Positions 3,101 to 62,620 of a stretch of 64,000 nucleotides of DNA are shown piece by piece. The stretch comes from Blasia pusilla (lineage: Eukaryota). The notes below the pieces were generated by a model, which worked only from the letters and a program-made list of their open reading frames with translations, was not told the origin of the DNA and made no database searches. Each line of letters begins with the position of its first letter. The first letter of the stretch is position 1. The stretch lies in the NCBI GenBank assembly GCA_050084515.1, contig CM114271.1, forward strand, positions 34,720,001 through 34,784,000, given 5' to 3'. The position numbers and the translations under genes are program-made.

Positions 3101-5470
3101 TCTTAGTCTTTGCTCTTGGGTCTTGGGTCTTTGTTCTTTGTATCCAATCTTCGCACAAAGACTACCTTTCAATCTTCTTTTGCAAAGAATCTTTTTCTAG
3201 TCTTCGTTGACAGTCTTCACCACTGTTCCTACTACGGTCTTCCTTGCGAAGTACCCGCGCCTCTTATTCTAGTTTCTTTTCCCGTCTTTTCCTACTTTTA
3301 CACCATTCTCACTCTTCCAAGATTGTCCTTAATCTCTTAGTATCTCTTGTCCTCTCATCAGATTTCTATCTATCAGTGTTTTTACACAATTTCGGTAAAG
3401 TATGCATCTTTACTTCCGATATTGAGTCATTAGTCTTCGCTCAAGCAAGACTTCTGGACAAAAAATGCTCTTTCCGTCAAAATTTCAAAAATGTGGGCAC
3501 TACAGCTTCTTATGATGCAGATGATGATCTAGCCATTCGTTCCGATTCACTTTTCTTCCGAGCTTCTCCGAATTCTTCTGGCTTGTTGCCACTTCCTTCC
3601 CCATTGCCCGTTCCATCTTTAATGGGAGTCCCAATTCACCAGGCATTTCCTCTTCAGTGGGAGTTCGCGCATCTCCATGTATTTCCTCTACCGTGGGAGG
3701 CTCTTCTTCTCCTACCTGTAAATCAACTTCTGGTGATGGGCGCCCGGATCTTTATTATGAATAGAGACCTCGGCCAAGCTCCCCTCCGCTTGCTAAACGG
3801 AGGAGTCCTCGGATTACCAAGTAGATTGAGCATTTCAACGCCCTTGCTGAAGATGAGAAAGATAAATAAAGAGCTTTTTAGAAGCGTTGGGCTCTTGTCT
3901 CTTTGACTGATTCTTTTTATGAACCTCAATCGTGTGAAGAAGCTAAGACCGGGCCGGATGCAATTCATTGGAAGTCTGTTGTTTCTGCCGAATTAGCCAA
4001 AATAGCCCGAATGCAGGCTTGGACTCTTGTGCCACTTCCTCATGATCGGAGTACTGTGGGTTATCCATGGGTTTTCAAGATTAAGCCCACATATGACGGC
4101 CGAATCCACAAATATAAAGCCCGGCTTGTTGCCAAGGGCTTCACTCAAATCTAGGATATAGACTACGAAGAGACGTTTTCTCCTACGGTGAAGTTACAAT
4201 CTCTTCGTCTTTTGATTTCTATTGCAGCTTATTTTAATCTTGACCTCCATCAGCTGGACGTCATTGCTGCTTTTCTATATGGTTTCTTGAAGCAGCAGAT
4301 TTTCATGGACCTTCCACAAGGGCTTTCAATTCCTGATCGCCACATGGTTTGTCTTCTTGGACAATCCATTTATGGGCTGAAGCAATCTACTCGAATGTGG
4401 TATGAGCGATTTCATTTTTCCCTACTTAACCTTGGCTTTGTCATCCTAACAGCAGATTCTAACATCTACATTTTGCACAAGGATTCTCAATTTCTTATTC
4501 TTGCACTCTATGTGGATGACACCATCCTGGCTAGCTCTAGCCCTGAACTTCTTACTTTTGTCAAAACTATGCTTCGCCAACAATTTGAGATGACCGACCT
4601 GGGTGAGGCGTATCACGTCTTAGGAATGCATATTCAACGCGATCATGAACATGGTTGGATAAGATTAAATCAAATGACATACCTGAAGAATAAGTTGACG
4701 CAATTTGAGATGTAGGACTGCAGGCCTATTTCTACCCCTTTTGATTTTTGTCTCCACCTTAGTAAAGACCATTCTTCTGTTGACGATGTTGAGATTGCTG
4801 CTATGTCTTTGATTTCTTATAAAAGTATTGCAAGTAGCCTTATGTGGGTGATGGTCTACACTCGCCCGGATATCGCCTTTGTTGTGAGCACCATTGCTTA
4901 GTTTATGACAAACCCATGTCCCATTCATTGGACAACAATCAAGCAAATTTTTTGCTATCTTCAGGGTTTCAATGACTATTTTCTCCAGTACCAGCGTTCG
5001 TCTGCTCCCTTTCAATTGGAAGGATATTTTGATGATGCCTACGATGACAATCTTGATTCTAGGAAGTCAACCAGTGGATTTTTCTTTCTTCTAGCCAGAG
5101 GAGCAGTTAGCTAGGCTAGTCTGAAGCAAAAATCGGTTGCTTTGTCTAGCACATAATCGGAGTACATAGCTATGACCAAAGCTAGTACTGAAGCTATCTG
5201 GTTAAAAGACTACTTTATGAAATTGGTTTTGCATAGAAAATTACTAAGATTTTTTGTGATAACGAGAGCGCTATCTCTTAAGTCAGTTCAAATAAACATC
5301 ATGATCGCACTAAACACATCGACATTCAGTATCATTTTATCAAAGACCAAGCGGCAAACTCAAGATGGTTTATGTTCCTACTGCAGATATGACTGCAAAT
5401 ATTTTTACTAAGGGTCTTTAGAAAGGCCCTCATTACAAGCATACTCGATCTCTAGGTTTATTTAGTTATG
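186..5470 (+). pseudogene. Copia gag-pol polyprotein pseudogene
   Basis: Fragmented ORFs 153-761, 1114-1389, 1877-2155, 3903-4154, 4188-4715, 4905-5114 are separated by stops and frameshifts; the integrase C-terminus is missing. Confidence 0.9.
2152..3504 (-). mobile_element. Foreign insert in the Copia integrase, probably an LTR fragment of another (Gypsy-like) element
   Basis: Copia homology stops after NRTLVN(S) at ~2152 and appears to resume at ~3505. On the minus strand the insert starts TGTAGTGCCC, typical of an LTR start. No TSD found. Confidence 0.4.
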
Positions 5471-5820: not shown

Positions 5821-7169
5821 TGCTTGCCATACAAGCAGTGCAGGAGGAAGTGTGAGAAGGATTGTGATCACGAATGCCATCCATTATCTTTTGGAATTCA
5901 AGTTGAGAGATACGAGCTGAACTAATGTGTCCCAAACGGCAATGCCAAAGAGCAGCCAAATGAGGAAGGACTACATTAGCGACTACAAAAGATGAACATG
6001 GGGAAGGTAAACAACTTCTCCCAACTTATACAAATCATTGAGAAGATAGCAAATAGTTATCAATTCTCCTTTGGGATTGTATAGGACACATGTGCCATTG
6101 CTGATCAAAGTTGAACGTCCAGCTGTATCAAGATGTTTGACGGAAAATCAATTCTTCTTGAGGCCTGGTATATGCAACACATTTCGAAGAGAATGTGGAG
6201 TTCCTTCAGAGAGGAGAATCTCAACCGTGCCGGTCCCATGAATTGCTTGAGTCGAAATGTCTCCAAGGTAAACATACACGGGCCGCTTGTATGGAGTAGA
6301 ATTGGAAAAATAATCATTGGAAAAATCCATGTGATGTGTAGCTCTAGTATCAAGATACCAAGTGTTATCTTGGATTTCCAATCCCGTATTGGAATATGCT
6401 ACTGTAACAAGCAGATGGGAAGTCATATGGGCTTGGGAAACCTGAGATTTGGATTGCAATTGCTGGTCAGCAAAGCGCTTGCGGCAATCTTTGATATGAT
6501 GTCCCAGTAGATTGCACTAAAAACACTTCATCCTTTGATAGTTATTCTGTTGACTAGAGGACGGTGACTGCCAATCACCAGTAGTATCCGACGATTCTCC
6601 TTTGGATGAATTCGCCGAAAATGCATGAACAAATCATGATATGAAAGAACCAACGCCTTTCTGAGGCACCTTGCCTCTACCGTATCCTCTTGATGGATAG
6701 CCACCTTGCTTGTGGCCACCAAACTTTGGCTTATAATTGGAAGGACCTATGCCTCGTCCAACAAAAAGTGCAGAAGACGGCTCTAATGTTTGCATCTTCA
6801 TCACCTTCTCCTCCTGGAGAAGATAAGTTATCACCGTCTAAAGAGTCACGTTATTCTGACCTCTTAAAGACGCTAGAAAATTGCAATAACTATTGGGCAT
6901 TGATTGCATCAATGCCAAATACTGATTCTCATCAGTAACTACTAAGCGGGCGGCAGAAAGTTGATCAATCAAGGTGCGAAATTGGTGAACGTGCTTAGTA
7001 ACACTATCTCCCTTCTTCATCTTGAGGGTTTGAAGCTCATCCTGCAAGTACATTTTCGTCAGGGCATCCCGCGCTTGGTATAAGCTGTCCAATTTGGACC
7101 AAGCTTCAGCGGCCGTTTTTGAAACACTAATATGATGGACTTGCCAATTGTCTAGTCGATTCGCGATAA
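5821..7169 (-). mobile_element. Second copy of the same Copia family (gag-protease-pre-integrase), antisense
   Basis: Reverse complement of window positions ~406-1756; ORFs 6148-6459 and 6634-6834 mirror the plus-strand copy. Confidence 0.92.
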
Positions 7170-9975
7170 AACCTTTCTCAAAAGTCTTCTTATTGTTGGC
7201 ATCCCACATGCATCCTTCTAAGAGTTCAATGCTTAAATAGGTGTATGTGGGCACAAGGAGGATCTCTTGTTCACTTCAATATTTTTTTTGGTCTTTGTCA
7301 ATACATTTGCCTCCATATCCACATTTCACACCAAATTAGGTCAAGGAGATCATCTTTTGGAGTTTCTCTCCCGCTTCCTCTAGACCACCAAAGTCATCAG
7401 CTAACATCGGCCATCCAGATACCTAGTCCAATATCCTATAATGGGGAATTGATTAAAATTTTGAAGAGGGTAGGGGAGAGTGGGCATTCTTGGGCCACTC
7501 CTTGCTTGATGTCAAATGTCAATAGGTCGGTTTCCCCTCTTTTTTCCTACCCTCGAAATTTGACTAACGATAAAGATGTAATCCACACATCCTCGGGCCT
7601 GCCAAAATCCACTATAGCCTTCCCTGATGACAACATTCTTCTCCAGAATATTAAGTATATGAAAAAAGGAGCTTCCCAACTACATTCACCAGTAGTTGGG
7701 AAGCTCTAATAATCCTAAATCAGTAAACTCCCCCTTATAGTTTCCAAGATCTTCAGGTTCACCTTTCTTAAAGAAGTTCATGATTACTCTTACCCGCTAG
7801 ACTAGGTTGAAGACACACATTAGAAAATGAGCCATAGCAGCATCCCATACTTCAATAGCTTATTCATAAATTCATTGTCACCGCCTACTTTGTGGTTCAT
7901 AAGTTATTTGATCAGTGCTCCCACCTCAACTAGGGAGAAGGAATCGTTATATGGGTTGCCCAACTCAACCTCACCCTCTACCTTCTCCCATTATATCTTA
8001 ACAAAATTCTCCACCACCTTCACAAATTTTTGCTCTTAAGAAGATGTTGAGGGGGCTTCTTGCCTAATTCCTTATAATGGTCTTCCAACAAATGTTGGAT
8101 CTGTTTAGCAATACATCTCACCGTAATTTTTTCTTCAAAACCTTTACGTTATTTTTGTCCCTGGCTTTGCTCAATTTCTACACTTCCATCCATAAATTTT
8201 ACCGATTTGCAGTGAAGTTCTTGTTGATGGATGAGTAGATTTCTTGGTTGAGTTTCTTCTTGTGCATACGCACCAAAAGACAAATTTCCTTGCGCAAGGC
8301 CACATAGTCTGCCCTCAAGAACCCATCGTCCTTGACATTGGCACATGCGACATATATTTTCCTTTGTTTGGCAATGGTTGCCTTAAGTTCCAAGGACTAC
8401 CATTTGATTTGATAGCTCTGCCACATATTATCAATTTCATGTTGACAATAATCTCTACATCTATCACTCCATGCTCCTACTATACCAACAAGATATCCAC
8501 AATTTTCCTTATGAACCCAAAGGTCTTAACAATAGATTCAAAATAAATGTCAAATATCAAGAGATTTTCTTCCAGCTTACCAATGTACACCTTCTTGTTC
8601 CCATGATCTTAGAAGTCCTCTATCCTCCATTTCTTACTGCTTGCTTCACTTCTTTGGTCGAGTATTTTAGTCTTTACTGCAACTCTATTTGATCAGGGAA
8701 TAATCTGATCTTCCAATATGTGTGGCATCCATCTTCATTGTTTCATTAGATGTGTGGATTTTCTCATCTACAACTATGTTATTCATAGTCAAGCCCTCAT
8801 TATTCTTGGAGTTGACCCTAGTCCAAGCCGGATAACCCGCCTTATATCTATCATTCAATGTCATTAGTTGAAGTTCCCTCAAGATCATGATTAGACGTGT
8901 GCTATTGCCATTAACTCTCACATCTCAAAACATTATGATCTTTTCTTGGGGATCAGTACCTTGCCACACCCAACTATTAAATTCTCCCAACAAGACTATA
9001 TTCCCCTTTGTGTGGAACCCAAGGCAATTTTTTTTCACGCTACCAAATGATTCCTCTATTACAACAAAAAATTCATTGTTTGTGGATTTACAAATCCCTT
9101 GAGTTGCACTCATCTCATACTTTGACCCATATTTTTTGTTCATACTTATGTGGTTGTTTGCCATGGTTGCACGGAAACGAACATGTCCATTCATGGAGCG
9201 GACATATCTAGACATGTCTGGATTAGTCAAGAAAAGTCTGTGGATATGCCCGACGGGTTCCCCACCCGGGTTGTTTCTGTACCCCAATGGCTCGCGCGAG
9301 CTCAAGATGTGGGAACAAATGCAGGCTCAGATTGCATGTGGGAGGAGGGGAAAAATCGGATCGCATGTAGCCCCAATCAGCCTGCCCCATGGAAGGCCCG
9401 CGATCAAGCTTGGGACAAGCCCACAACTAGACCCGAAATCTTCCCAGGAAATTGCGAGGAGTATCAATTTACCTTCCTCCCAAGATTATGAGGAGTATCA
9501 ATTCTCCATCATTCCAAGATAATATGTTGCTTTAGGCTTAAGGCCATTGATTATATGTAGAGGTTTGGCAAACCACTTATTTATGATTTGGGAAGAATGT
9601 TCAACCCAGCTGAAAGTCCATATAAGGACTCGTTCTCCTATTTATGGAGGAGGATTGCCTCCAAGCGGCAAGGTGCCCAAAGAAAGCCCACTTGTTACCT
9701 CCAGAGATCATAACTACATACCAAGACGAATATCCTTAGCATTAAGCTGCAGAAAAGGGCCCATGAATCCAACATTTAAAGAAGGAGAGGTCTCTATTTT
9801 TACTACTAATTTCACTTGATGCCTTACTTGTGGCACAAGTGCAACAAATCACATTGATTAGCAGACAGGATAATCCACACCTACCAACCAACAATGTCGC
9901 AAGCTTACAACAACGATATAAAAAGCTCACAACATGTTCCAACTAAAGCAAAAGGTGACTTCATAGAGAGTATTG
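7170..9975 (-). mobile_element. Degenerate LINE (5' region, APE endonuclease, RT), same family as 57956-62135
   Basis: APE-like motifs IVLLGEFNS and GRSDYSL; RT fragments (QGVAQ..LSP, YTYL); the 5' part matches 58075-58510. Confidence 0.85.
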
Positions 9976-11649: not shown

Positions 11650-12313
11650 TATTAGATTCTAGTAGATTAGCGCAACAAATCAGTCCATTAGTGTGCGCTA
11701 GTTAGTTGATCCTTGTGTTTCTCACACGGATCAACCAGGATGAACGGACTAGATTACCCTTGATTTTAGGGACAATTTCTGTCCACTAGTTTTCTTCTTA
11801 TGTCGTTTCATATTTGTAGAGTTAGAACGACGCATATATTTTTTAGCCTTCTTTCTCTATTAGTAGCGGAAAGTTTGTATCAGCATTCATTCCTTTTACG
11901 ATCAATAAATCTAGTCTGAGCATTCGAGCATTTTCTCTCTCTTGATCATTACTGATATTTTTACATGGTATGAGAGCCAAGTTGCTAGTCACTACGCTTA
12001 CAATTTCAAGAGAGGATTGGAATTTGAGGGACACTTCAACATTCCTAGAGTAGAGGGGACGCCTTCTATTGAAAGTTTTCTTGGTGGGTGCGGACTTCAG
12101 ATTCTTACGAATTCAAAGTCCTTGACCCTTTTCTGTCATTTTCATCAATTTGCAATGGTGAATACTAGTATGCTCCTTAAGATCAAGGAAATCCCAAAAT
12201 TTGACGGGACCTATTTCTATATCTGGCGTTTTTGCATGATGTTATTTCTAGACGCCAAAGATTTAGCAGGAACTCTTGACGGCACGATCATTAAGCCGAC
12301 AGCGGCCACTGCT
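11650..12313 (+). mobile_element. Copia 5' LTR (11650-11965) + PBS (11966-11977) + start of gag, truncated
   Basis: LTR matches 5504-5820. PBS TGGTATGAGAGC is one mismatch from the tRNA-iMet PBS TGGTATCAGAGC. gag start MVNTSMLLKIK. Confidence 0.92.
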
Positions 12314-13295
12314 CATAAGAAGGTGAAAAATCCATCAAGATTCCTACATTGTTGAGACAACACGTTAGAATTAGGCATTTTTTCATTCAACATACCATTT
12401 ATCCCTCATTAAAATATGTGCAATAGTGTGGGAGGAAAGGCTTGAAGTTGTGTAACTAAAATGTTTTGGGGTATGATGTCCGCTTCCTCACAAATGGATA
12501 GACATGGTGTAAGATCAAAACTGAGAGTGGAACCAAGGTTGCACACGGACAAAGTCTATGTTTGCAGATTTATGTCTGTCCCTAGGATGAATATGTTCAT
12601 GCGGTCCTAGGTTCACACGGACCCCATTCGGATCCACCCCGCTTGCAACGTAGACTCAGGCTTAGCCAGCCTCTACCCAATCCAGCGAACCATTGCTCGC
12701 CCCTTCTTTCCACCTATTCTGTAGCCCACTATAAGCCATCGCTAGGCCTACATCAAGATTGCCTGGCCTGCACTGACACAAAGGGTTCAAAATTATCCCG
12801 CACAGGTAGCCTACACGCATGGGCTTGATGGAATCTTCTTGAATCCGAGCATGCATGTGTTTTGAGCTCCTGCACAGTGGTCCTTGCGGGCCTTATTTAA
12901 GCCGACCGTGGACCAAGAAGGCTCGATATAGGCCACGTACGGGCTTGATGCGGGTCTAGCAAGGGCTCATAGCCTTTATACATGTTCAATACCTACCCCT
13001 GCCCGTTCACACATCCCAAGCCCGTGCGCGTGATCAGCCTACCAGAAAGACCAGGACGAGGGATCCGTTGGGCATGTCCCTCCCATGGATTGACAAGTCG
13101 ATTTCTGTGCAACCTTGAGTGGAATCCTTGGATGATAGAGGTCGCATCACCAAGTTGAAATGGCGGAGGTAGTTGGAGACAATGGACTCCCATTGCTATC
13201 ATAAAGGGAAAATTTGGGTCCAAAGAAGATTTGTAAAGCAGGCCAAATCTTGGACAAAAAAGGTCCAAGAGATTTTGCAAGCAACTAAGCTCCCC
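12314..13295 (+). mobile_element. LINE 3' RT-region fragment, interrupted by a hAT MITE
   Basis: Matches 60906-61325 on both sides of the MITE. Confidence 0.8.
12534..13117. mobile_element. Non-autonomous hAT-type MITE
   Basis: TIR CAAGGTTGCACA...TGTGCAACCTTG; 8-bp TSD AGTGGAAC (12526-12533)/AGTGGAAT (13118-13125); the LINE is contiguous across the insertion. Confidence 0.88.
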
Positions 13296-14232
13296 ACAAT
13301 GACTACTCTAGTCTGAATGATATCAATGGTGATGAAAAAATATTGGAAACTCAATACTGAAGCTTGGACGTTGGTGTTGAAGGATAGAGCAACTAGCACT
13401 AGAATCATGACAATGGTACCAAAAAAAAAAAGCGGCAGCAAATATGGAATGGTGATTAGTAGCAAATTTCCAATGGTCATATATAGTAATAGCAACGATG
13501 GCGGATGGCAAGAGATTGACTGTTGGCTGAAGCCCTGATGACTTAGTGATGCTCTAATAGGTTGACGGTTGAGGGAATAAAAATATGATGATGGGCATCA
13601 TGACCTGTTGATGGCCATATTGACGGGAGGCTATTGCGAGCTTCCTGTGGTTTGAAGAGAGCTTCCGTTGGGTTGAAGAGAGGAAGTTTTTTTTGTTAAC
13701 ATTTTTGCAATTTTGTTCCTTATGCTTAGTCACTCTCACAGATTGGTTTTTTCTCTTCCACATTCCGGCAACCCGTCTAAATCCGACGGGTTGCAAGTTG
13801 CACAAAATAAATAAAACTGAAAAAATCATTGGAATCACAAATGTGGAACAAATCACTTTTTCTATCCAAGGTCTAAAAAAAAATCATTATTTTTCCATAG
13901 CTGATTAGAGTTCAAGCTCATAGTGAACATTTTGGCACTTCAAAGTACAATCAAAGATCTCATTTTGCATCCTCAAAGTGGTTTGTTTAGGACCTTCGCA
14001 CTTCTTTGAGGGATAAAATTGGTTGGTGGATTCCTACTCCTATCTCTAACTCTCTTAAAACTACAAGCAACACATAGTACATGAGCTTACAAGGGAAATA
14101 CCTTTTCCCACTTGTCTCTCTTTAGACAAAGTCATCACATGAACATGTGGGAAAGCAACAGATGTGTACCACATACATCCTTGTCACACTTGAATTCACA
14201 GTGTTGTTCTTGACCCAATACATCCTTCCTAT

Positions 14233-17200
14233 TCAATTGCCACTATGAACATCTTTTATGGCGATGATTTCCATGTTTGCCTTTCGAGCTGATGCGATTC
14301 GCTTTGCTCTCTCCACCGTTGGCCTACACATTCTGTTTCTCTTCACCTCATTTCTAGACTCAAACAGAAATAGTGGATTGAGATCATCCACCTTCTCCGG
14401 GTACATGTTGACATCAATCTTGGGTTGAATCCGAAATGCGAAGGTCTCTTTAATGCAAACATGGTCTGAACTCCCTCCATCTAAGAGTCTGAAACTGGCA
14501 CTCGTAAAATTGTCCACTTCCTCTAGAGTGCAATTGGTATCTGCAACAATGGGCCAAATCGTGGGGGTATTCCGTGGAACTCCAATGGCAGCCAGATAAG
14601 ACTTTCGGAAAGCGGATGATTCATTTGGGCAGAAGAAGTACTTCAATTGATCCTCGATTCTAGTAAAATGATCAAAGGTTTTCAGCCTCCATAAGCCTGG
14701 GAGTGGTCGTCTTGTCCTTGTATAGTTCTTATTTAGGAAAGTGCCACATGCTCTCCTAATGCCATCTGATCTTGCCCTGCAAGTGGGGCCACATCTAGGG
14801 TTGCTTCGAGAAATATGCCATCGCTTGAGGTTGCAATCAACCTCAACAACCAGAATCCCATACTGTTGAACTACCCTCGAGATTGTATATTGGGAAGTTC
14901 GAGTAACACACGGATTTTGAAATAAAACATCCACTGATTTTGCAGAAGGTACTTCAACCCAAATTTGGGGGAAGTCTGGTGTCTCCAAATACCCGAGCAG
15001 GGTAATTTCATCATCCAAATCAATCACCGGATTCTTTCCTCGATATTGACGCTTAATTTTCTTGAAGTCAATATACTTATCAGGTCTCCAAGAGTCTCGT
15101 TCAGACTGCTCTACTACCCTCTGTATGGGACGTCTCGAAATACGCCCACAAATTTCCCCACCAATATGGACGTCTTTCTCGAGAGGAGTTCCAACTACAC
15201 ACCGATTGAAGGCTTCCACAGACAATTTTCATCCCCAGATCTCACAACGGCTCCAACATAGAGCTTGTAAATCGAAGGGCCCTTTCCCTTGGTTATGCCT
15301 TTTGTAAGGAAGATGTGGGATGTTGCACATTGTAGCATTGCTCTTGCCTGGTCTTATTGGCATGCCTCAACGAGAGATATTTTTTTGACATGTTTGTGAT
15401 GATCTCTAAGAGGAATTGACACTCTTGGCTCCACTTGTGTTGGGGCAGAGGGCATTCTCGTGAATGTTTAGTCCCTCCACAAGAAAATTTGTCAATTGAT
15501 GGAGAGAAAGCCTAAGTGTTCAATGCTTCAAGAAGCATTGAAGCATTCAAGAAGCATTCAATTGAAAACAACCAACCTGTCAATAAGATGTATGAACAGA
15601 ACTTGGACACAACGGGTTGCCAACAACTACCAACCCGGGAGTGGTTCCGACGCGTTGCAGCATGTAATTTGCAAGACAAGCAGCAAACCATCAGATTTCG
15701 ACAGGTTGCAAGTAGAACATTTTTGAAAAAAGCCGCTTGCAACCCGTCAAATAGCAATGCAACTCGTCACAAGATAAAAAAATTCAGAAAAAATTTGACA
15801 CGAGTCAGATTCTGACGAGTTGCAAGATGAAAGTTTTTCACACAAAAGTTACTTGCAACCCGTAGGATTCTGACGGGTTGCAAGATGAACTTTTTTCGCA
15901 AAAAAGTAACTTGCAACCCGTCACATTCTGACGGGTTGCAAGCCATTGAATTTGGATAGGTCGCACTGTGATGTAACATATCGGTTCCAACAAGTTGCTT
16001 TACCTACCTATTTTGCAACCCGTACGATTCTGACGAGTTGCAATGTCACACTTGGACTACATACTTGGAAAAAATGGGGAAAACTCACGTGCTGCATAAA
16101 GTTTCCCCATTGCCCATTCGAACGGTCCACCAACTGAGCCACGAACACAACTCTTTGTATTTCCCCTCAATCGTATGCTTTCTCCACCACACTTGAAGCT
16201 CTTCTTGGCACTTCATGGCTTGTTTCAAGGTTTTGCTATCCTTGCAGCGTTGAAGTACAGCTACATGCTCTGTTCTCTTAGTCTCCTTGATGTAGAATTT
16301 TGTGTAGCGAGTCACAGATTGTTTCCAATGGAAAGCATCCGATATTCCCCTTTCTGGTTGAAAGACGATTTTGCTGATAGCAATCCATCCGGAAAATATC
16401 AAAGCTAACCCAGCTCCCAAATAGATCTTCTCCCTCCCTCATTCTGTCAAAAAGATCCAGGCCGCTAGACAACCCTGTAGTAGACATTTTGAAGACATAA
16501 GCTCTAGATCCCTCGCCTCCTTGGCCCATGAAATACCATCTCTGAATGAATGGAAATCGTGAGTTGGCCTTGATCTTGGCAATGGCATCCATCTCGTGGT
16601 TTTTCCGTCAAGTATTCGTATTTGATGCAATAAGTTCCTGAAGCTTTCAAGATCAGCCAAGAATGCCAAATTTTCCCATAGTTGTTTCTTCTGAGCTGCC
16701 ATGATCTCCCCTTGGCCACGAATACCTAGTAGTTGTTCACAAATATGTGATGGAGTTGTCAATTTGATCACTTTGGGCTTTGATCTCGGAGAATTTTTGT
16801 ATATCTCAGCCACTTTCTTTGCCATATCCTCCTTGATGTGTCTCTGAATTGCACCCGTGACAGGATGAGTGTGACACCCAACATGAATTGCTTGCCTTGT
16901 GTACTCGGACGTAGAACTGTAGTCGTGCACTATGAAAAACATATAAGTCGGACACGTTGTAACATAGAAAGGGAAGGCTTGATAATGCAAACATCGATGG
17001 CCACCGGACGGTATAGTCGTACCCACGGCGTAAGGAGTTTCAGCATTTTTTGGGGGAAATTGTGACGTATTCACGACTCCGTTCCTCTCGAGGAAGGGGC
17101 ATCTTGGACTTCTGCACTCTAAAGCTCCAACGCATTGGTGACGAGACACAATCCAAGGACCACTTGGGATTGAAGCACTCGTTCGCTGCAGTCTACACCA

Positions 17201-17320
17201 TCGGTGATACTCCAATTTTTGGTGCATACCCTTCAAGCAACCTCCATCTTTCTTTTGAGCAAGACCGACAAGTGGAGGCAGCTCAAAAATGCAGCTTCCA
17301 TCATACGTTGCTAGCAACTC
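14233..17320 (-). pseudogene. GCM-like zinc-finger, Mutator-like transposase pseudogene (putative intron ~15512-16088)
   Basis: ORF 16439-17413 has W..C(VGALE)C..PRC..C..CP..HVGCHTHP (GCM/WRKY-type Zn finger). Then VFKMS..GLDLFDRM..WVSFD (candidate first catalytic D), SDAFHW (degenerate CxxH) and WLSWW. The C-terminal ORF 14233-15225 has WHISR..C..C..FFC..IWP. The DDE core appears internally deleted. Confidence 0.65.
15600..16045. repeat. Cluster of ~8 degenerate 29-bp palindromes in the transposase intron
   Basis: e.g. TTGCAACCCGTAGGATTCTGACGGGTTGCA (15853) and TTGCAACCCGTCACATTCTGACGGGTTGCA (15911). Confidence 0.9.
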
Positions 17321-18429
17321 ATCCAGAGATGAGGTAGCAAGAAAGGTTGGAAAATCTAGCTCCGAAGAAGCTCGCAAAGCAAGAGGAGAAGCGGGAAGAA
17401 AAATGGCTCGCAAAGGCGCAGAAGGCCGAGAAGAAATGCATGGAGGCGGAGATTAAGCAGAAGAAGATGCAAGACGCCGCCTTCCGGAAAGCCAAATTGG
17501 CAAAAGCCAGGAAGGAAAATGCAGTCGCTATAGAAGAAGAACCCTCCCAGCAACCCATCGAGAGTGTGGAAATGGAGGATGTGTCATCTATGAGGTGAGT
17601 GGGAAAATGCAAGAGACCAACACCGACGAGCTTCCAGAGATAAACAAGGAAGCTGTTAGAACCCCGAGTGTTGAGATCATGGAGATCTCGGAAGGAGAAG
17701 GAGAAGAGTCTTCTACATCTTAGAACCCTGTTGAAGAATTTGACTTGTTTGCAATTGAAGAGTTTCAAGTGGACTTGCCGGATGAGGCTCCAGAACAGCT
17801 CGCTGGACTTGACACCGACCCCATTTTTGAGCGGGTAAGCATTGTTCTACATTTCTCTTTGCATTGCATTGCTTCCAGTCCTTATGAAAACTGGAATTAA
17901 TAGTGGTGACATTCACGCAGGTGGTGAAGCATATGGCACAGGTGGATGGTCCGAACACCCCGAGGATTCCTCTCTGCCTATTCCGAACGATGGAATACGT
18001 TCGAGAAATCCAATCCGAGGGAGACATTGACAAGTTGAAGTTGTTTGTGGCAACAGCTTCACATGTGGATAGCTTCCCACCTTTCTATGTTCAACCTTAT
18101 GATGAGCATGGAACCCAGGCTTTGGTAACTGAGGAAGACCTAGAGAGTCTGGATGCTTTCTAGAGGCTGAGGGATGTGGAGTTCTGGAAGGCAGTGGCAA
18201 GAACCCAGTACAAGTGGATGCAAAACTTGTACTTCTTCATCTAGGATGGCAACCACCGATTCATGGCATGGTCGAGGTTTGCAGCGGAGCGACCAAACTC
18301 CCTTGAGGCTCATTTCTGTGTGAGGGCGGTGGTTCTCCATCCCTACCCGAATCATATGGCCACCGTGGAGATGGCCATGCACTCCATTATCACGTAAGTA
18401 TCCTGAAACTTTTCTCCCAAATATGAACC

Positions 18430-19090
18430 CGTTTCAACCTGTTGGACTCGGACGGGTTGGTTCTTAGCAGCAATCGTTAAAGATAGCAACAACCCGTCAG
18501 AAGGCGACGCATTGCAATAGGAAGAACTCCTTGCCATATTTGCAATCCATCGGACTCCGACGGATTGCATTTGGCAATCTATTGAGTTGCTTGGCAACCC
18601 GTCGGAATCGGACGGATTGCATTTGGCAATCTATTGAGTTGTCTGGCAACCCGTCGGAGTCCGACGGGTTGCACAAACTCGAGTGTTGCTATCCCAATAG
18701 GACTGGCCTTGCAACCCGTCGGACTCTAACGGGTTGGAAGAGCAGGGATGTCTTGCAACCTGTTGGAATCCGACGGATTGCAAGAGAAAAAACTTACCTC
18801 TAAATCCTCAACCCCGATGCAAATATAATACCCGGTGTGGGTGGCTTTGCAACTCGTCGGTTTCCGACGCATTGAATTTACGAATGTAGTGGATGGTGGT
18901 GCAACCCGTCGGACTCCGACGGGTTGCAACCCAACTCCTTCGACAAGACGCAACCCGGATGCAACTTGTCGGTTTCCAACGGAGTGCACTGAGAAAGCTT
19001 GTGGAGCAACCCCTCGGACTTTGACGGGTTGCAAGCAGTTGTCATTTTGTTTGTCTATTTCAAACCCGTAAAAAACCAACGGGTTGCTAT
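18430..19090. repeat. Cluster of ~12 29-bp palindromes in a ParB-gene intron
   Basis: Perfect copy TGCAACCCGTCGGACTCCGACGGGTTGCA at 18900-18928; others mostly every ~45-65 bp. Confidence 0.93.
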
Positions 19091-21154
19091 TAGTAAATGT
19101 TCTTACTTCTCATTGTTGTTTGCAGCATTGTGTCGGAAGGGAATATTACCCATCACTGGATCCAAAAATACGCCTGAGTGAGGAAGGTTCTTACAACGCA
19201 CCCATCGCAATACAAAGGATTCCTTGGAGAGGATCCGAGTTGGTGGATGAGATGCTCGCAAAAGGAGCACAAATCAAAAAGAAGACTTGGGCCAACACAT
19301 TCATTTCCCAAGATGCAACTATTACAATTCTCTACAGGTCAAAAATCCAGGCAGCAAAAAGAAGCGTGACACTGGAGCTGGAGTGGAGAGGGAATGTTTC
19401 AGCTTCTGAGAGAGCGAAGTTCATTCAGGCTGTGGTGTCGTCGGCGACCACGTACCTTGCAAAAAAGATGCAACGGTACATCGCCATCCTCAACCCCAAG
19501 CTCGGGCCCGAATTTTACACAAAGTTGAAGGCCATAATCAAGCGGTAGCAAAAGAGGGACGAGGATCCATACGGACGAATTATAGTGAAGGTGTCTTTGG
19601 ATCGAGTTCGCCCTCTCGGGGATTTCAGAATTCAAGCAGATCCGACTGATGAAGATCAATCTATAGGGAATGGAGGAAGAGAAAAAATTGGCACACCATG
19701 GGTGGTGTCCGACCCACTCATTTCCCAGTGGCTGCGAGAATGGTCCATTTAGGATGCCTTGCACTTGCTAGGAAAGGCAATGATTGAGTGCCTTCAAGCC
19801 GACTTGTAGAGAATTCAGCCAGTTCCGGAGGAGGCTAGCCTCGAATCGGCAGAGGAGTACGAGTTGTGGTTGAATGACATCCGGGATAAGCCAACAAAGA
19901 ACCCCGGGTTCAAGAAGATGATCAAGAGCCTAATTATGCCGCAGGGGGATGTCGACGAGGAGATTGGCGACCCGAAGAAATGGAACTTTGCCAAAAAGAA
20001 GAAGGAGCTTCAAGATCAAGCTACCAATTCATCCCGCCATTGAGCTGAGCAGAGGATGGTGTTCATATTCTTGACTTCCTCTATGAATGCAGGAACATGG
20101 AGGAAGTTCTCAACGGTGCTCAAGCTATGGGCAGATACTCCAGATGGCAAAGGATTGTCCATGTATGATGTGGAGATGGCACTCGACATGAGCCCTTGGG
20201 AAGTGCTAAACTGTTCAATCTGGTTGGACTTCAATGACCCTGATGAGCTCACTGATCTAGCAAAGCGAGACTTGTATAATGCGCTAGCTGCTAGCGAGGA
20301 GGACATCCCAAAAATTTTCAAGATGGAGGAGTACTTCGAAGGGGATGGCGAGGCACAAGCGATTGAGGCGGCTGAGATTTTGTCAAAAATTGTAAGAGTA
20401 AAAGACAAGTCCATTGTGGGGTTGAAATCCAAGGTGAAGGGCCCCAAACCATCCAAGGTAAGATCATCTAGGCAAGAAGGGCGGCAACGAGAGGCCCCGA
20501 AAGAGAATCCTATGGATTCTGAGGTCACGGTGACCCCAAAAAGCAAGCACCCCACTCGCGAGAAGTGAAAGAGGGAGACACCCGATTCCTCCGAGGGGGG
20601 GAACAAGAATGTAGTCTTTACTCCTTCATTGTTGGGGAAGCACACGGACAGAGCATCAAAAATCACCATCTTGCTGCATCAAACATCATTGTTGGAAGAA
20701 CTGGAGAGGTTCTCCACACAAGAGTCCACGTCTTCCCTGGAGAAGCTGACACTCTTGGGATGAAAGCTTTCACGAAACGGCCATGCCCTGTGGACTGTCA
20801 ATGGGGTACATGAGGAGGTTGCAATTGACCTCCTCATCGCAGATCTACCATCGAGGCTTAGATTGTGGGCAGAGAACCCATGCGACCCAATTCCGGATTG
20901 GAACATTCCCTTCACATATGACCAGATCGCCTTGATGTTCTCCTTTGCCAACGCGTATCTGAGTGACACGGGATATTTCCTTGTTCTCACCGATGGCAGC
21001 GAGGATGAGCTCTTCAACTTGCAGTGCGTCAAGCAATCGTTGAAGTGGCAAATAGTGTTGTATTGGGTTGTGAAGAACGAAAACCCGCTGAGGTCAGCTA
21101 CAAATCAACTCTTGGTAAGTCTGAAAAACTTATGCAACTTTTTTCTTTTTTTCT

Positions 21155-21425
21155 TGCAACCCGTCCAACTGCGACAGGTTGCTCAACACACATCAGAACT
21201 AGAGTGGTGATGCAACCTGTCGGACTCTCACGGGTTGCACATTGACCCTTACACGGACTGTGCAACATGTCCGACTCCGATGGGTTGCACATGGACCCTC
21301 CCATGGCCTGTGCAACCCGTCGAAACCCGACGGGTTGCACATCCACAGTTTGTGAGCAACTTGTCGGAATCCGACGGGTTGCATCGCCCCCAACTTTGCA
21401 ACCCCAGATTCCGTTGGTGACATCT
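21155..21425. repeat. Cluster of ~6 29-bp palindromes in the intron after the MTase-like exon
   Basis: Copies at ~21155, 21211, 21261, 21311, 21356 and 21398 (~50-bp period). Confidence 0.9.
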
Positions 21426-22194
21426 GACATTTCCAACCCGTCGAGTTGCTCTTGGAAGACCTTTTCCTTGATTCTTAGCTGATTTTTATGGTGAGAATGA
21501 GTGGCGGAAACATTCTCTGCCTTGAGTCTCGGAACAACTTGTTTGCACTTTTCCAGGAGGCAAAGTCATAGTACAATAGGTTGATGGGCGTTTACCAAAT
21601 GCCTGCACGGATCAATGAACCTGCATTGGAGCCACTGGTTGTGACGCCATCCTCACTACTAGTGATCCCAAAACTCGGAAGGGCAAGCCCACCGGTGATT
21701 CTAGAGGAGTTGTCGGATGATGACAAGTGATTGTAGGTGCATTGGATTTCAAGCATTTTGGAGTTGATATGTGTTGGTTCTTGGGGAGGAGCAAATATTG
21801 ATATCAATGGGTTTCCCTTTGTAGAAGCTTCAAAATCACCTATCCGGGCAGCGTTGGTACTTTTCTCGGGCCACAGGGGACCGATACGGGGTTCCTAGGG
21901 GAACAAGGCTCTCACATCCTCCTTCCTTCTCAATTCCAATCTACAATTGTGTAGAGGAGCCACTGACTAGCCCTAAGAAGTCACTTGTAGAGGCATCGGC
22001 AAGAGTTAGAAATATTTTTGTAGATGACGAGGTTGAAGAGATCATAGACTAGATTTTCTTCTTCAGGAAATCAAATGTAAATAACCGATTGGCATAAATA
22101 CAATCGATGTTTTGCACCCAATTCTCTTCACGCTTATAGTCTGATGTTATTTTTGTTAACACATTCCAAAATTGGGGTGAGGCTTTTCTGCTGT

Positions 22195-22605
22195 TGCAAT
22201 CCCTCGGAAACCGACGGGTTGCCTGAAAGGGTCTTTGAACTGCAATCTCTTTTCACATTTACATTTTGCCTGAAAATATCTTCACTACAATGTCTTTTCA
22301 CTGTACCAAGACCAATTTGTTTCCTTCTATTCTTTTGGTGTGGTGTGCGTGCTCTCCTGGACTCTAATATTCGGTTGGAGTGGTTGGTAACCCGTTTGAT
22401 TCCGAAGGGTTGAGAACCACTCCAACTGATGGAAAATGTCAGTTTTTGCAGATGGTCTAGTCTTGCAACCCGTTGGAGTCCAACGGGTTGCAAGATCACC
22501 TAAACCAGGGACAATACAGTCTTGCAACCCGTCGGAATCCGATGGGCTGCAAGATATCCAAATGCAGACAATCCTTGCAACCTGTCGAATTCCGACGCGT
22601 TGCAT
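22195..22605. repeat. Cluster of ~5 palindromes downstream of the ParB/MTase-like gene
   Basis: Includes the perfect 17+1+17 palindrome TCTTGCAACCCGTTGGA-G-TCCAACGGGTTGCAAGA at 22461-22495. Confidence 0.9.
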
Positions 22606-25184
22606 GTCTAAATAAATGGACCTGGTTGCTTAGCAGTCTCCCTCTTCACTCTTGACAGCTACCAACCTCTTGCTTCCATTGTCCTCTTAGTCCTTCCATG
22701 CAGGTTTTTTTCTCGATGCATATATTTCCTTGTGGCTTAGAGAATGGTGAAACCAAGTTGTCAAACGCCCAGCAATCTCCTATGGACTCCATGCACCCAT
22801 GCAAGAGCCAACATATGTAACTAAATCGTGGCCTCTGAGTTTTCTAGAATATCCAATTTTTTGGAATATCCAGGGCTGTCATGAAAACCATCGGCTACGC
22901 TCAATGGTCAGAGTTTACTGTGAGCCGATTTCAAGTGTTCTATTGTGGAAAATCCCATTTGATGGATCAGTATTGATCGGATGGGATTTTTCATATCTTG
23001 ATGCATCAAGAGCCCTCCTACCCAACACGGTGAGGGTGGGAGTCCTACATCGATGGTCCATAAGTAAAACCCTCAAGGACACTATAGTCTATTGACATAA
23101 TAGTCAATCTTTATTAGCACCTATTATTGTTCTGAAATTGTTTGTACTAATAAAATTATTCCTAGATAGTCCTCCAACAATATTACCCCCTTTGGGTGGC
23201 TTACTCTATAGTCGGCTTAGACTAGTAATGTGAAAAAAATTTGGCTCACATAGAGAATGCTGGAAGCATGTTTGAAGTGGTCTTCTTATGTCTACTTGTT
23301 TTTCCAAGCCTGGAAAAAACAAGGTTAGTTTATGCCCCAATCTAGTCCACTTGCTACTCTCTTCTAAAGTTTTTTTGCATTTGAAAGCAAAAAAAAAATA
23401 CAGAAATGTCAAAAAGTTTTGAAGAGAGGAGGCAGATTCTGCTTTTTTTTTAAAGAGAGACTCTCCTCTCTTCCTCTCCTCTCTTACTCTCTCATGCCAG
23501 AATACCAGCTCCCAACGAAGCAACTAGGTCGGAGCTACAGGTAAGGAGGACAGTGTCGACTGAAGGGTGTTGGTTAATAGCAACCGCATGATTGCATTAG
23601 AGAGCAAGACAAATTTGATGAGATCCTAGTGGATGTTGTGATCAACATCTAGGCTTCATTTTCTATGGTAACTTGTTGTAACAGGTAGGCATGACCCAAA
23701 CGAACTTCAATCCACTTCACATTTTTTGTTAACTTGGAAAGATAATCTGCAAGTGCCAGACAGGTAGAAAAAGTAGAGTGTCTACTTGCACATCATTTTG
23801 ACACCCGTCCAATTTTGTGTCATTCCCCCACTAGTCTTATTCTAATGTAAGTCGGGCAAGAGCTGCACAGGGGCCATTTGGAAGGCGTTGCGGCTCAGGA
23901 AAGGCACCCGAGGTTTATGAGACTCTGTCAATTCTTGATGAATGATTTCAGTGAGGTGTATAGTCTACGGGCCGCTCCAACAACGGCCATTACGAGGCGA
24001 TATGTACAAATACGGTGAATGCACCTCCGTCGGCAAATATTAAGTACGAGCGGTAGGCATGGGATGGATTTTTTCACTATGTGGGAGGGATGGTTATGGA
24101 TGTGGTAAGGTGATACATGTGGTCCAGTTTGGTATCCACTACTTTTGGTGGAACAGAAGAGGCGGCTATGGAACTGACGGGCCCTGATGAGGGAAGGCTA
24201 GTTGGGAGAGGGGAGATGATGAGTCTTATCATGTACTGGAACGAAGAGTTCAACTTGTTCTTTGTTTTGATCTTACCATGGCTCCTATAGTGAAGTATTT
24301 TTTATTTTTATTCTATTTTCTAGATCTCTGATCTTATTAGGGTTCTCATGTAGGTATTAAGGTTTCACAAATAGCGATGTAGTGGATCTCCTCATGTAAC
24401 TTCCTTTCTTCATCCAAATCACCCCCCTCCCCCTTCTACATTCACCTTTATTTTTCATCTTTATTTTTTGCTCACCCTTGATTCATGGTTGTCTCCATTG
24501 CTATACCCTTAGCTAAACCCTTATTTCCATCCATTTTGATCTAGATTTGTCTATTCACTTCCAACATTCTTAGTATCTTCATGAAGCCACTAGTTATGTT
24601 TGGACAAGCGGTTTGGGTTTAGAAGTCTTAAGTAATGAAGGTAGATGAGAGTTTATTCTAGGGAGATCAATTTGAATAGTGGGAATTATCTCTTGAGTTT
24701 GATGGAGGGGGTCATATTCTCTTGTTGGTGAATTATATCCATGCCTCGACCCTCACCAATCCCCGGTATGGGGACCCATGGGTCGTCTAGTTGGGATACG
24801 AAATGCACTTTTTTTCGAATACGAAATAGGTTTAGGGTCAAGTTGATGACCTACGCGCATAGGTCACCAAAGGAAGCTGAGGGTATACCTCAAGTAGAAT
24901 CAGTTTGAAGAACCCATGTTCAATAGCCTATATTCCTTTCATAAAAATGAAAGTGAGAACCCCAATCAACTACGGCAGATAATATTGTAAAAGGCTTTCT
25001 TGTTCATACTTAGAAGTTCGGAATAAAAATATCTATAATCAATATTAATATTATATAAAATGGTATCTATGTACTAATTTTTTTTCCTCTCATTTATGCT
25101 TGCATTTTTTTACTCATTTTTCTTATGTTATTTTATCTTGTTCATTGCTCACTTAGTCCATGCGTATGTTTTATTCTTACGTGC

Positions 25185-57955: not shown

Positions 57956-62620
<4,665 letters not shown>

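Follow-up and report, generated by a model that had tools for sequence, protein, structure and literature searches.

Catalytically dead methyltransferase-like proteins that serve as partners or scaffolds are exemplified by METTL14 (EPPL) and DNMT3L, in which a conserved, methyltransferase-derived domain has a degenerate catalytic motif, the complete fold is kept and an active paralogue acts as partner. Two-gene transposons whose accessory protein binds subterminal repeat arrays are exemplified by En/Spm (TNPA with TNPD) and PIF/Harbinger (a Myb-like protein), which have short-motif arrays in their non-coding parts and internally deleted derivatives. Among amino-methyltransferases, PF05175 (MTS; RsmC/RlmG/PrmC type) and PF03602 (RsmD type) are of gamma-order, with NPPF/DPPY and with motifs I-III upstream of motif IV, while the beta-class PF01555, to which YhdJ of E. 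coli, the rotifer N4CMT and, according to the literature, the Marchantia 4mC enzymes MpDN4MT1a/b (Mp6g18330, Mp6g18340) belong, has a (D/S/N)PP(Y/F/W) motif IV in a domain of ~220-300 aa. In beta-class enzymes the SAM-binding half is C-terminal, and the change of SPPY to APPA abolishes the activity of the rotifer PF01555 enzyme, both according to passages of PMC8885841. 4mC occurs in a liverwort, as passages of 10.1101/2021.02.12.428880 report, and a remark to this effect (bacterial-type N4C methylation) in an earlier, sequence-only reading of the locus was correct; no link was found between liverwort 4mC and the domain described here.

The stretch under study (20767-21117, plus strand, frame 1) lies in a window of 64,000 nucleotides of Blasia pusilla, which is the whole piece of DNA that was analysed and to which all positions refer, and translates into 117 aa (P0001). 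With a probability of roughly 0.55, we read it as the last conserved exon of a repeat-borne gene that is dead, the domain that it encodes being a diverged, shortened and non-catalytic relative of amino-methyltransferases, closest to the beta-class PF01555. Three strings singled out by the sequence-only reading are present: IDLLIADLPS (P0001 residues 20-29, at 20824-20853), FANAYLSDTGYFLV (residues 60-73, at 20944-20985) and NILCLE (frame 2, 21509-21526, inside the open frame 21479-21571). The features of the locus are collected in Table 1.

Table 1. Features of the repeat and of the gene that it carries (window coordinates)
Feature	Position	Strand	Basis
Lone further palindrome copy	13768-13797		Palindrome match search
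Open frame, 331 codons, no known family	14233..15228	-	ORF; Pfam search
Palindrome array, between the 331-codon and the 337 + 117-codon frame	15600..16045		Palindrome match search
Open frame, 337 + 117 codons	16085..17452	-	ORF; one in-frame stop splits it, 16439-41
Array, ~10 copies of 29-nt palindrome TGCAACCCGTCGGA-N-TCCGACGGGTTGCA, 5' of gene	18432..19087		Palindrome match search
Upstream part of the gene's frame 1, N-terminal two thirds of protein	19072..20763	+	Frame-1 translation
In-frame stops	19546-8, 19750-2, 19807-9, 20041-3, 20566-8, 20761-3	+	Frame-1 translation
Last conserved exon of the gene; ~115-aa C-terminal domain	20767..21114	+	Translation, tblastn, family alignment, HHalign register
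D-L-P-S motif, within IDLLIADLPS	20842-20853	+	Sub-feature of last conserved exon
F..A...L.D.G block	20944-20985	+	Sub-feature of last conserved exon
W-x-x-x-N	21064-21078	+	Sub-feature of last conserved exon
Probable phase-0 intron, palindrome array inside at 21149-21386	21115..21478	+	Donor, acceptor, loss of similarity
Candidate second exon, 83 codons, contains NILCLE, ends EELSDDDK-stop	21479..21730	+	Open frame 2
Palindrome array 3' of gene	22189..22607		Palindrome match search

The flagged stretch is a conserved protein domain, beyond chance, and has six relatives, two of which are hypothetical proteins of Riccia sorocarpa (488 aa) and R. fluitans; the corresponding loci are those of KAL3687003.1 and KAL2653794.1, respectively. 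A phmmer search of 1.84 billion representatives gave eight matches at E <= 0.001, of which three were true relatives (P0004, 2e-12; P0006, 2.5e-6; P0007, 1.3e-4) and five were long repeat proteins deemed spurious by eye, and a profile search brought in P0010, P0011 and P0012 (8e-18 to 3e-9). When Riccia proteins were compared with the window by tblastn, residues 371-486 of P0004, one of them, aligned on 20776-21120 (E 6e-16). Positions D21, D26, P43, W45, N46, A61, D67, W100 and N104 are invariant in the alignment of the seven known members, which have no Pfam model and constitute an orphan protein family common to the window and Riccia. A separate homologue search returned none for P0001, the full-length alignment returned only two of its own sequences, and metagenome contigs gave no relative with P0001 or a three-member sub-alignment as query. 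Literature searches on Riccia and liverwort transposable elements and on eukaryotic N6_N4_Mtase transposons found neither the protein family nor the palindrome, the rotifer paper alone surfacing for the latter topic. Two phage records from tblastn (E 6 and 8) coincide in position with annotated methyltransferase genes that are encoded on the other strand, and were rejected as chance matches.

In the window this gene copy is dead, a pseudogene: the single frame that runs from 19072 to 21114 contains six in-frame stops, and residues 31-321 of P0004 are collinear on 19465-20388, crossing four of them (tblastn). At two of these stop positions in the window, a sense codon is read in other copies. 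Since C is found at 19546 in other genomic copies, the TAA there was CAA, and the one in-frame TAG of the candidate second exon (21569-71) was TAC, as C is found at 21571 in other copies (four contigs in run X1, five in X3 and three in X4). The sequence-only reading had missed that this exon forms the end of a long frame interrupted by six stops, and that it lies inside a multi-copy repeat. A splice-donor-like G|GTAAGT stands directly after codon 21112-21114 (CTC TTG|GTAAGT), an acceptor-like ..cttAG|CTG is found at 21477-8, and similarity ends right after the donor codon in all seven predicted proteins, six of which have V (GTN) at that place; few genomic copies cover 21392-21495. These signals point to a probable intron. 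The database proteins terminate in what would be a read-through intron, their C-termini being predicted only. Adding the candidate second exon to the family profile neither raised the HH score nor carried the alignment believably as far as hE.il..K or motif I, and no support was found for the proposal that NILCLE represents motif II.

The repeat that carries the gene spans ~9 kb, from about 13.77 to 22.6 kb in the window, and is probably a DNA transposon. Contigs covering 19000-22100 numbered 181, 101, 300 and 393 in four DNA runs under one organism label (accepted at a likeness of at least 80%, and mostly less than 95% alike); many dispersed, diverged copies are thus present (101-393 contigs per run), and in run X1, 357 of the 570 changed places were transitions. 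In some copies one array is joined directly to another and the gene is absent, as in internally deleted forms. The 29-nt palindrome, which is CG-rich, gave 17 matches at up to 3 mismatches, against 0.00 expected; every one of them falls within 13768-22603, and no other fragments of the element were found elsewhere in the 64-kb window. The longer of the minus-strand frames is probably the second gene of the element; it has a Cys/His-rich stretch, which by eye may be zinc-finger-like, and the 331-codon frame may be another exon of this gene. Neither frame had a match in Pfam or among solved structures, no Pfam family, transposase included, was found in any frame of 13.6-22.7 kb, and no Rfam family anywhere in the window. 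Terminal inverted repeats or a target-site duplication were not found, the palindromes being the sole terminal repeats seen. An ordinary single-copy host-gene pseudogene that happens to lie among repeats might be proposed instead, given that a relative is annotated as a hypothetical protein in two Riccia genomes and that the element has no recognised transposase family. This is highly improbable in view of the hundreds of diverged contigs over the gene in four runs, the palindrome arrays, which flank and interrupt the gene and are absent from the rest of the window, the copies in which arrays meet without the gene, and the neighbouring minus-strand frame, which is broken too.

The sequence-only reading had suggested that family members be checked for DPPY/DLPY and FxGxG. 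Motif IV reads DLPS, DLPT, DLPK, DVPE, DVSE, DLPE and DLPK in the seven members (D-[LV]-[PS]-x); D26 is invariant, and the first P of (D/S/N)-P-P-(Y/F/W) and the aromatic residue are found in none, the position of the latter not being conserved. An FxGxG-type SAM-binding motif I (for example DPFxGSGTT) is absent from all seven predicted proteins, whose 3' exons may differ in intact copies, and an HMM found no match of this type in any frame of the element; the remark that no clear FxGxG could be seen was right. As the altered motif is family-wide rather than a lesion of the window copy, a decayed active methyltransferase, one half of the earlier proposal, is not supported, and the other half, a pseudo-enzyme or reader, fits better. 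With motif IV altered and lacking its aromatic residue, and with the SAM-binding half missing, the domain would be unable to methylate, and in our reading of the sequences it is probably an inactive half-domain rather than an enzyme. A working methyltransferase in intact copies, with the SAM half on downstream exons or on a partner and D-L-P as a functional motif IV, would be in keeping with the invariant D26, with the C-terminal position of the SAM-binding half in beta-class enzymes (in passages of PMC8885841) and with the fact that all seven predicted proteins stop at the probable read-through intron. We regard it as very unlikely, given that the candidate downstream exons (21479-21730 and 21825-22052) contain no FxGxG and have no Pfam match, that the PF01555 HMM found no C-terminal half in the element, that the aromatic residue is missing in 7/7 members at a variable position, and that a PF01555 enzyme is inactive once its SPPY has lost Ser and Tyr (same passages).

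Kinship with methyltransferases is moderately supported, through profile and language-model signals that are weak. A profile of the seven-member family was compared by HHalign with self-built profiles of (D/N)PP(Y/F) amino-methyltransferases and of other alpha/beta domains. Four of the five amino-methyltransferase profiles matched over ~60 columns in one register, in which ID..I.D[LV]P pairs with vDLIfaDPPY, and F..A...L.D.G with the helix and LkpgG strand: a YhdJ-type PF01555 set (score 33.0, P 1.7e-4, probability 49%), a diverse PF01555 set (23.7), PF05175 (25.0) and PF03602 (24.9). The fifth, MT-A70 (PF05063; 30 bacterial domains), scored 14.1 (P 0.18), and the idea of an MT-A70 relative (DPPW ... 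WGF..W.K block) was rejected on this result. Scores for the other alpha/beta profiles were 14.7 (Methyltransf_11), 16.3 (receiver), 12.0 (adh_short), 11.7 (GATase) and 10.1 (HAD). None of 120 column shuffles reached the real scores (shuffle maxima 24.5 and 21.0), and the PF01555 score rose from 20.7 and 25.6 with the family halves to 33.0 with all members, whereas the receiver score dropped from 20.6 and 17.9 to 16.3. The P value depends on the setting (1.7e-4 with -M first, 6e-3 to 7e-3 with -M 50), and over all settings and templates it ranged from 1.7e-4 to 1.6e-2 (probability 3-49%) at a constant register, as compared with 0.002 for a false pair. This unrelated pair, PF01555 and receiver domains, scored 26-27 in the same set-up, so that three of the four positive scores are at the false-positive level; true relatives were much stronger (PF01555 against PF03602, 8e-10; against MT-A70, 9e-8).

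Sequence-to-profile searches were blank. In Pfam, PF01555 (gathering threshold 26.7 bits) was not matched at E <= 1 (P0001, P0004, P0006, P0007) or E <= 10 (P0010-12), nor was any other family by any of the seven members at these limits; phmmer and hmmsearch against solved structures gave no methyltransferase, and with a self-built PF01555-type HMM the flagged frame was not listed among 2070 window frames at E <= 50. AlphaFold models of the full Riccia protein and of the window domain were both of low confidence (pLDDT 39.8 and 42.9) and unusable, and Foldseek, run on the second model, found no match at E <= 0.001; none of the 50 matches listed was a methyltransferase. The predicted order strand-loop-helix-strand-(helix)-strand would be compatible with the beta4-loop-alphaD-beta5 arrangement of class-I enzymes. 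By ESM Atlas features, PF01555 clusters made up 17 of the 30 matches of the window domain at 0.90, a score that by the tool's own statement occurs in 4-10% of shuffled proteins, and the Riccia domain drew PF01170, PF05175 and PF01555 clusters at 0.86-0.92; out of 7.7 million Atlas clusters, those of amino-methyltransferases are thus picked with each of these two members, which are only 28% identical. All ten Atlas structure rows were class-I methyltransferases (TM 0.54-0.56), with the Atlas's own Riccia model at a pLDDT of only 0.33. The Atlas signal and that of HHalign may stem from one and the same short motif, the one noticed in the sequence-only reading. The beta-class likeness proposed in that reading is partly supported, by the motif IV/VI register and the Atlas PF01555 clusters, and not by Pfam, solved structures, the HMM or AlphaFold.

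The domain could instead be an orphan of the repeat element without common ancestry with methyltransferases, its likeness convergent or due to chance: a strand, D-x-P, a helix and a G-turn strand form a common alpha/beta pattern, picked because it was sought. We hold this to be quite possible, if short of probable. It would account for the blank sequence-to-profile searches, the lack of structural support from AlphaFold and Foldseek and the unmatched MT-A70, and it is favoured by the false pair at 26-27, which scores through the same type of strand-D-x-P motif, and by a three-sequence sub-profile that did equally well on receiver and PF01555 (20.6 and 20.7). It is harder to reconcile with four of five amino-methyltransferase profiles falling in one register while none of the five other alpha/beta profiles exceeds 16.3, with a best score (33.0) above the false pair and all 120 shuffles, with a signal that climbs as members join, and with the Atlas clusters drawn by both of the 28%-identical members.

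On the preferred reading, that of a methyltransferase-derived domain, the closest described system is PF01555, which is both the best profile-profile match and the Atlas pointer for the window domain. The blocks that it shares with the family are collinear and belong to the domain's N-terminal end; in order, they are an H/G-containing strand, hhhhxD-x-P, a W ~17-20 residues on, the helix F..A...L, the G-turn strand and W..(K)N. The family differs in its motif IV, in its length (~115 aa), in lacking a target-recognition region, the motif X/I (FxGxG) half and any Pfam score, and in being borne by a repeat element, with a ~370-aa helical/basic region before the domain. PF05175 and PF03602 likewise align in register over the strand of motif IV, the helix and the G-turn strand, but the region upstream of motif IV is predicted to be helical in the family and has no GxGxG. 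Unlike METTL14 and DNMT3L, the family has about half of the fold recognisable and no known active partner, and in the element, unlike En/Spm and PIF/Harbinger, no transposase domain could be recognised and neither terminal inverted repeats nor a target-site duplication were found, its repeats being perfect palindromes with one array inside the probable intron.

The stretch is best explained as the last conserved exon in a dead gene copy of a multi-copy liverwort repeat, probably a ~9-kb DNA transposon. Intact relatives of the gene code for a protein of ~490 aa, in which a helical N-terminal region and a basic linker precede the ~115-aa C-terminal domain. Most likely the domain corresponds, in a very diverged and shortened form, to the catalytic-motif half of (D/N)PP(Y/F) amino-methyltransferases, with the strand into the motif-IV loop, the next helix, the G-turn strand and possibly the W..N strand as the matching parts. 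It might have a binding role, without catalysis, within an accessory protein of the transposon, the CG-rich palindrome arrays of the element or its second protein being the most plausible partner. A more specific version, in which the accessory protein of a liverwort-specific DNA transposon family has exapted a dead beta-class half-domain that recognises or base-flips the element's own palindromes, perhaps from the same bacterial transfer as the 4mC enzymes, is unlikely.

The present value of the finding is in annotation, namely an unclassified two-gene repeat element and an orphan protein family common to Riccia. If the kinship is true, a mobile element would have recruited a methyltransferase-derived half-domain in a lineage of land plants that diverged early and that is already known to use a bacterial-type amino-methyltransferase for 4mC. 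It would then be another DNA-modification fold reused without catalysis, and would offer a handle on an unclassified, palindrome-rich repeat.

Translation of positions 20767-21117 in frame 1 gave a 117-aa stretch (P0001), which overlaps a region (20815-21560) where a sequence-only reading had proposed a beta-class amino-methyltransferase-like domain with DLPS for DPPY in motif IV. The strings on which it relied were located where it had placed them, IDLLIADLPS at 20824-20853 and FANAYLSDTGYFLV at 20944-20985 within P0001, with NILCLE in frame 2 at 21509-21526. An exhaustive phmmer search with the P0001 domain returned eight proteins at E <= 0.001, five of which (long repeat proteins with many short matches) were judged spurious on inspection. 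The three true relatives were P0004 (488 aa, R. sorocarpa KAL3687003.1; E 2e-12), P0006 (305 aa, R. fluitans KAL2653794.1; E 2.5e-6) and P0007 (176 aa; E 1.3e-4); three more, P0010, P0011 and P0012, came from searching short proteins with a profile. Residues D21, D26, P43, W45, N46, A61, D67, W100 and N104 were invariant in the seven-member alignment. The flagged stretch is a real protein domain, and its only named relatives belong to two liverworts, Riccia sorocarpa and R. fluitans.

Positions 19072-21114 form a single frame (frame 1) with six in-frame stops. By tblastn, P0004 residues 31-321 were placed on 19465-20388, unbroken over four of the six stops, and residues 371-486 on 20776-21120 (both frame +1), so the flagged part is the C-terminal domain of a protein of about 490 aa, of which the window carries a pseudogene copy. 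The frame closes with CTC TTG|GTAAGT at 21114/21115; similarity was lost at exactly this junction in all seven database proteins, six of which have V (GTN) there. We infer a conserved phase-0 intron at this position, read through by gene callers, in which case the family's true C-terminus would be absent from databases. A good acceptor at 21477-8 leads into an 83-codon frame (21479-21730) with NILCLE, an acidic tail and one TAG.

The gene is carried by one element of about 9 kb (approximately 13768-22607), to which a perfect 29-nt palindrome, TGCAACCCGTCGGA-N-TCCGACGGGTTGCA, is confined; its 17 copies in the window at <= 3 mismatches (0.00 expected), all inside 13768-22603, form four arrays and one single copy. 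Contigs from four DNA runs of one organism were aligned to 19000-22100 at a likeness of at least 80%, giving 181, 101, 300 and 393 contigs per run, most of them less than 95% alike; transitions made up 357 of the 570 changed places in one run (X1). Other copies in these contigs had C at 19546 and at 21571, where CAA and TAC correspond to TAA and TAG in the window. Some contigs joined 19033/19034 to 21211/21310, array to array, with the gene between deleted. Summed contig depth at 19208-19311, 21288-21391 and 21912-22100 was 10-100 times that of the rest of the gene, and these segments, or look-alikes, seem to be present in much greater numbers than the gene itself. The element is multi-copy and decaying, with internally deleted derivatives. 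Its ends, terminal inverted repeats and a known transposase were sought in the window and not found, so that DNA transposon is the likeliest label, short of demonstrated. Its two minus-strand frames had no match in Pfam or solved structures. The longer, which by eye has a zinc-finger-like Cys/His-rich stretch, is possibly an unclassified transposase.

The surrounding sequence is eukaryotic and plant-like; it includes a gene for a family-29 glycosyltransferase as well as fragments of LINE and copia-like elements. Two of the candidate Ty1/copia pieces are near-identical, in opposite orientation and about 5 kb apart.

Features of the element and its surroundings (window positions)
Feature	Position	Strand	Remarks
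Palindrome array	15.6-16.05 kb		
Palindrome array	18.43-19.09 kb		
Palindrome array	21.15-21.39 kb		Within inferred intron
Palindrome array	22.19-22.61 kb		
Open frame, 337+117 codons	16085-17452	-	One in-frame stop between the two parts (16439-41)
Open frame, 331 codons	14233-15228	-	
Family-29 glycosyltransferase (sialyltransferase-like) open frame, 423 codons	46696-47967	+	PF00777, E 5.8e-34; apparently an intact exon of a host gene
LINE-like element	59300-60712, with 58463-59233 and 60801-61668	+	Reverse transcriptase PF00078, E 4.3e-25; flanking frames co-directional
Candidate Ty1/copia gag, integrase, reverse transcriptase pieces	1081-1458	-	By eye
Candidate Ty1/copia gag, integrase, reverse transcriptase pieces	6115-6510	+	By eye
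Further candidate Ty1/copia pieces	69-761, 1814-2419, 4155-4715, 6838-7275, 11915-12355		By eye
Long dinucleotide microsatellite (GA/CT-type)	about 61900-62150		SLSLSL / RERERE in translations

The proposed methyltransferase likeness drew moderate support from profile-profile alignment and language-model features; direct searches did not recover it. Pfam gave zero matches for all seven members, and neither phmmer nor the family profile found a methyltransferase among all solved-structure sequences. With a YhdJ-type PF01555 HMM (filters off; 2070 window frames) the flagged frame was unlisted at E <= 50, and no motif-I-like piece was found anywhere in the element. AlphaFold models, from shallow alignments, reached a pLDDT of 39.8 for the full-length Riccia protein and 42.9 for the window domain; Foldseek with the latter had no match at E <= 0.001, and the matches listed did not include a methyltransferase. 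A phage tblastn of the window domain gave only two matches, in records L001 (PQ511147.1, 1501-1803) and L002 (PQ511047.1, 1501-1788), at E of 6 and 8; both lie antisense to a 231-aa gene annotated as 'DNA methyltransferase', which itself had no Pfam match at E <= 0.01, and were put down to chance.

ESM Atlas features, by comparison, assigned the window domain to PF01555 clusters in 17 of 30 matches (at 0.90) and the Riccia domain to PF01170, PF05175 and PF01555 clusters (0.86-0.92); all ten Atlas structure matches of the latter were class-I methyltransferases (TM about 0.55), from a model with pLDDT of only 0.33. The seven-member family profile was aligned by HHalign with profiles built for this comparison. 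YhdJ-type PF01555 scored 33.0 (P 1.7e-4, probability 49%), to be read against 26-27 for an unrelated pair in the same set-up (PF01555 and receiver domains) and a best P of only 6e-3 to 7e-3 under the -M 50 match-state rule. PF05175 (25.0), PF03602 (24.9) and diverse PF01555 (23.7) came next, then receiver domains (16.3, different region matched), Methyltransf_11 (14.7), MT-A70 (14.1), adh_short (12.0), GATase (11.7) and HAD (10.1). All four high scores shared one register: ID..I.D[LV]P fell on the strand plus (D/N)PP(Y/F), and F..A...L.D.G covered the helix that follows and the G-turn strand. In 120 column shuffles the highest scores were 24.5 and 21.0, each short of the real one, and reversed profiles gave 19.1 and 14.6. 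Halves of the family scored 20.7 and 25.6 against PF01555 in the same register, rising to 33.0 when combined, whereas the receiver score dropped. True relatives were far stronger (PF01555 with PF03602, 8e-10; with MT-A70, 9e-8). We put the probability that the domain is akin to methyltransferases at roughly 60%.

Motif IV reads DLPS, DLPT, DLPK, DVPE, DVSE, DLPE and DLPK across the seven members, the aspartate being retained and the first proline and aromatic residue missing throughout. DPPY thus occurs in none of them. The change is shared by the whole family and did not arise through decay in the window copy; the suggestion of a decayed active enzyme is not supported. A study of a PF01555 enzyme describes loss of activity when the SPPY Ser and Tyr were replaced and, for permuted PF01555-type enzymes, an AdoMet-binding half C-terminal to the catalytic half (PMC8885841). 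That half (FxGxG) was not found in the predicted family proteins or the window's candidate downstream exons. With motif IV changed and this half missing, the domain, if methyltransferase-derived, would be a non-catalytic half-domain. The background statement that bacterial-type 4mC occurs in a liverwort was correct: in Marchantia sperm it is reported as made by MpDN4MT1a/b (10.1101/2021.02.12.428880). Literature searches turned up neither the protein family nor the palindrome. The flagged object is a dead element gene; the original observation is confirmed and its interpretation partly supported. The intact protein may have been a transposon accessory protein with this domain in a putative binding role, for which the palindrome arrays would be a plausible target.
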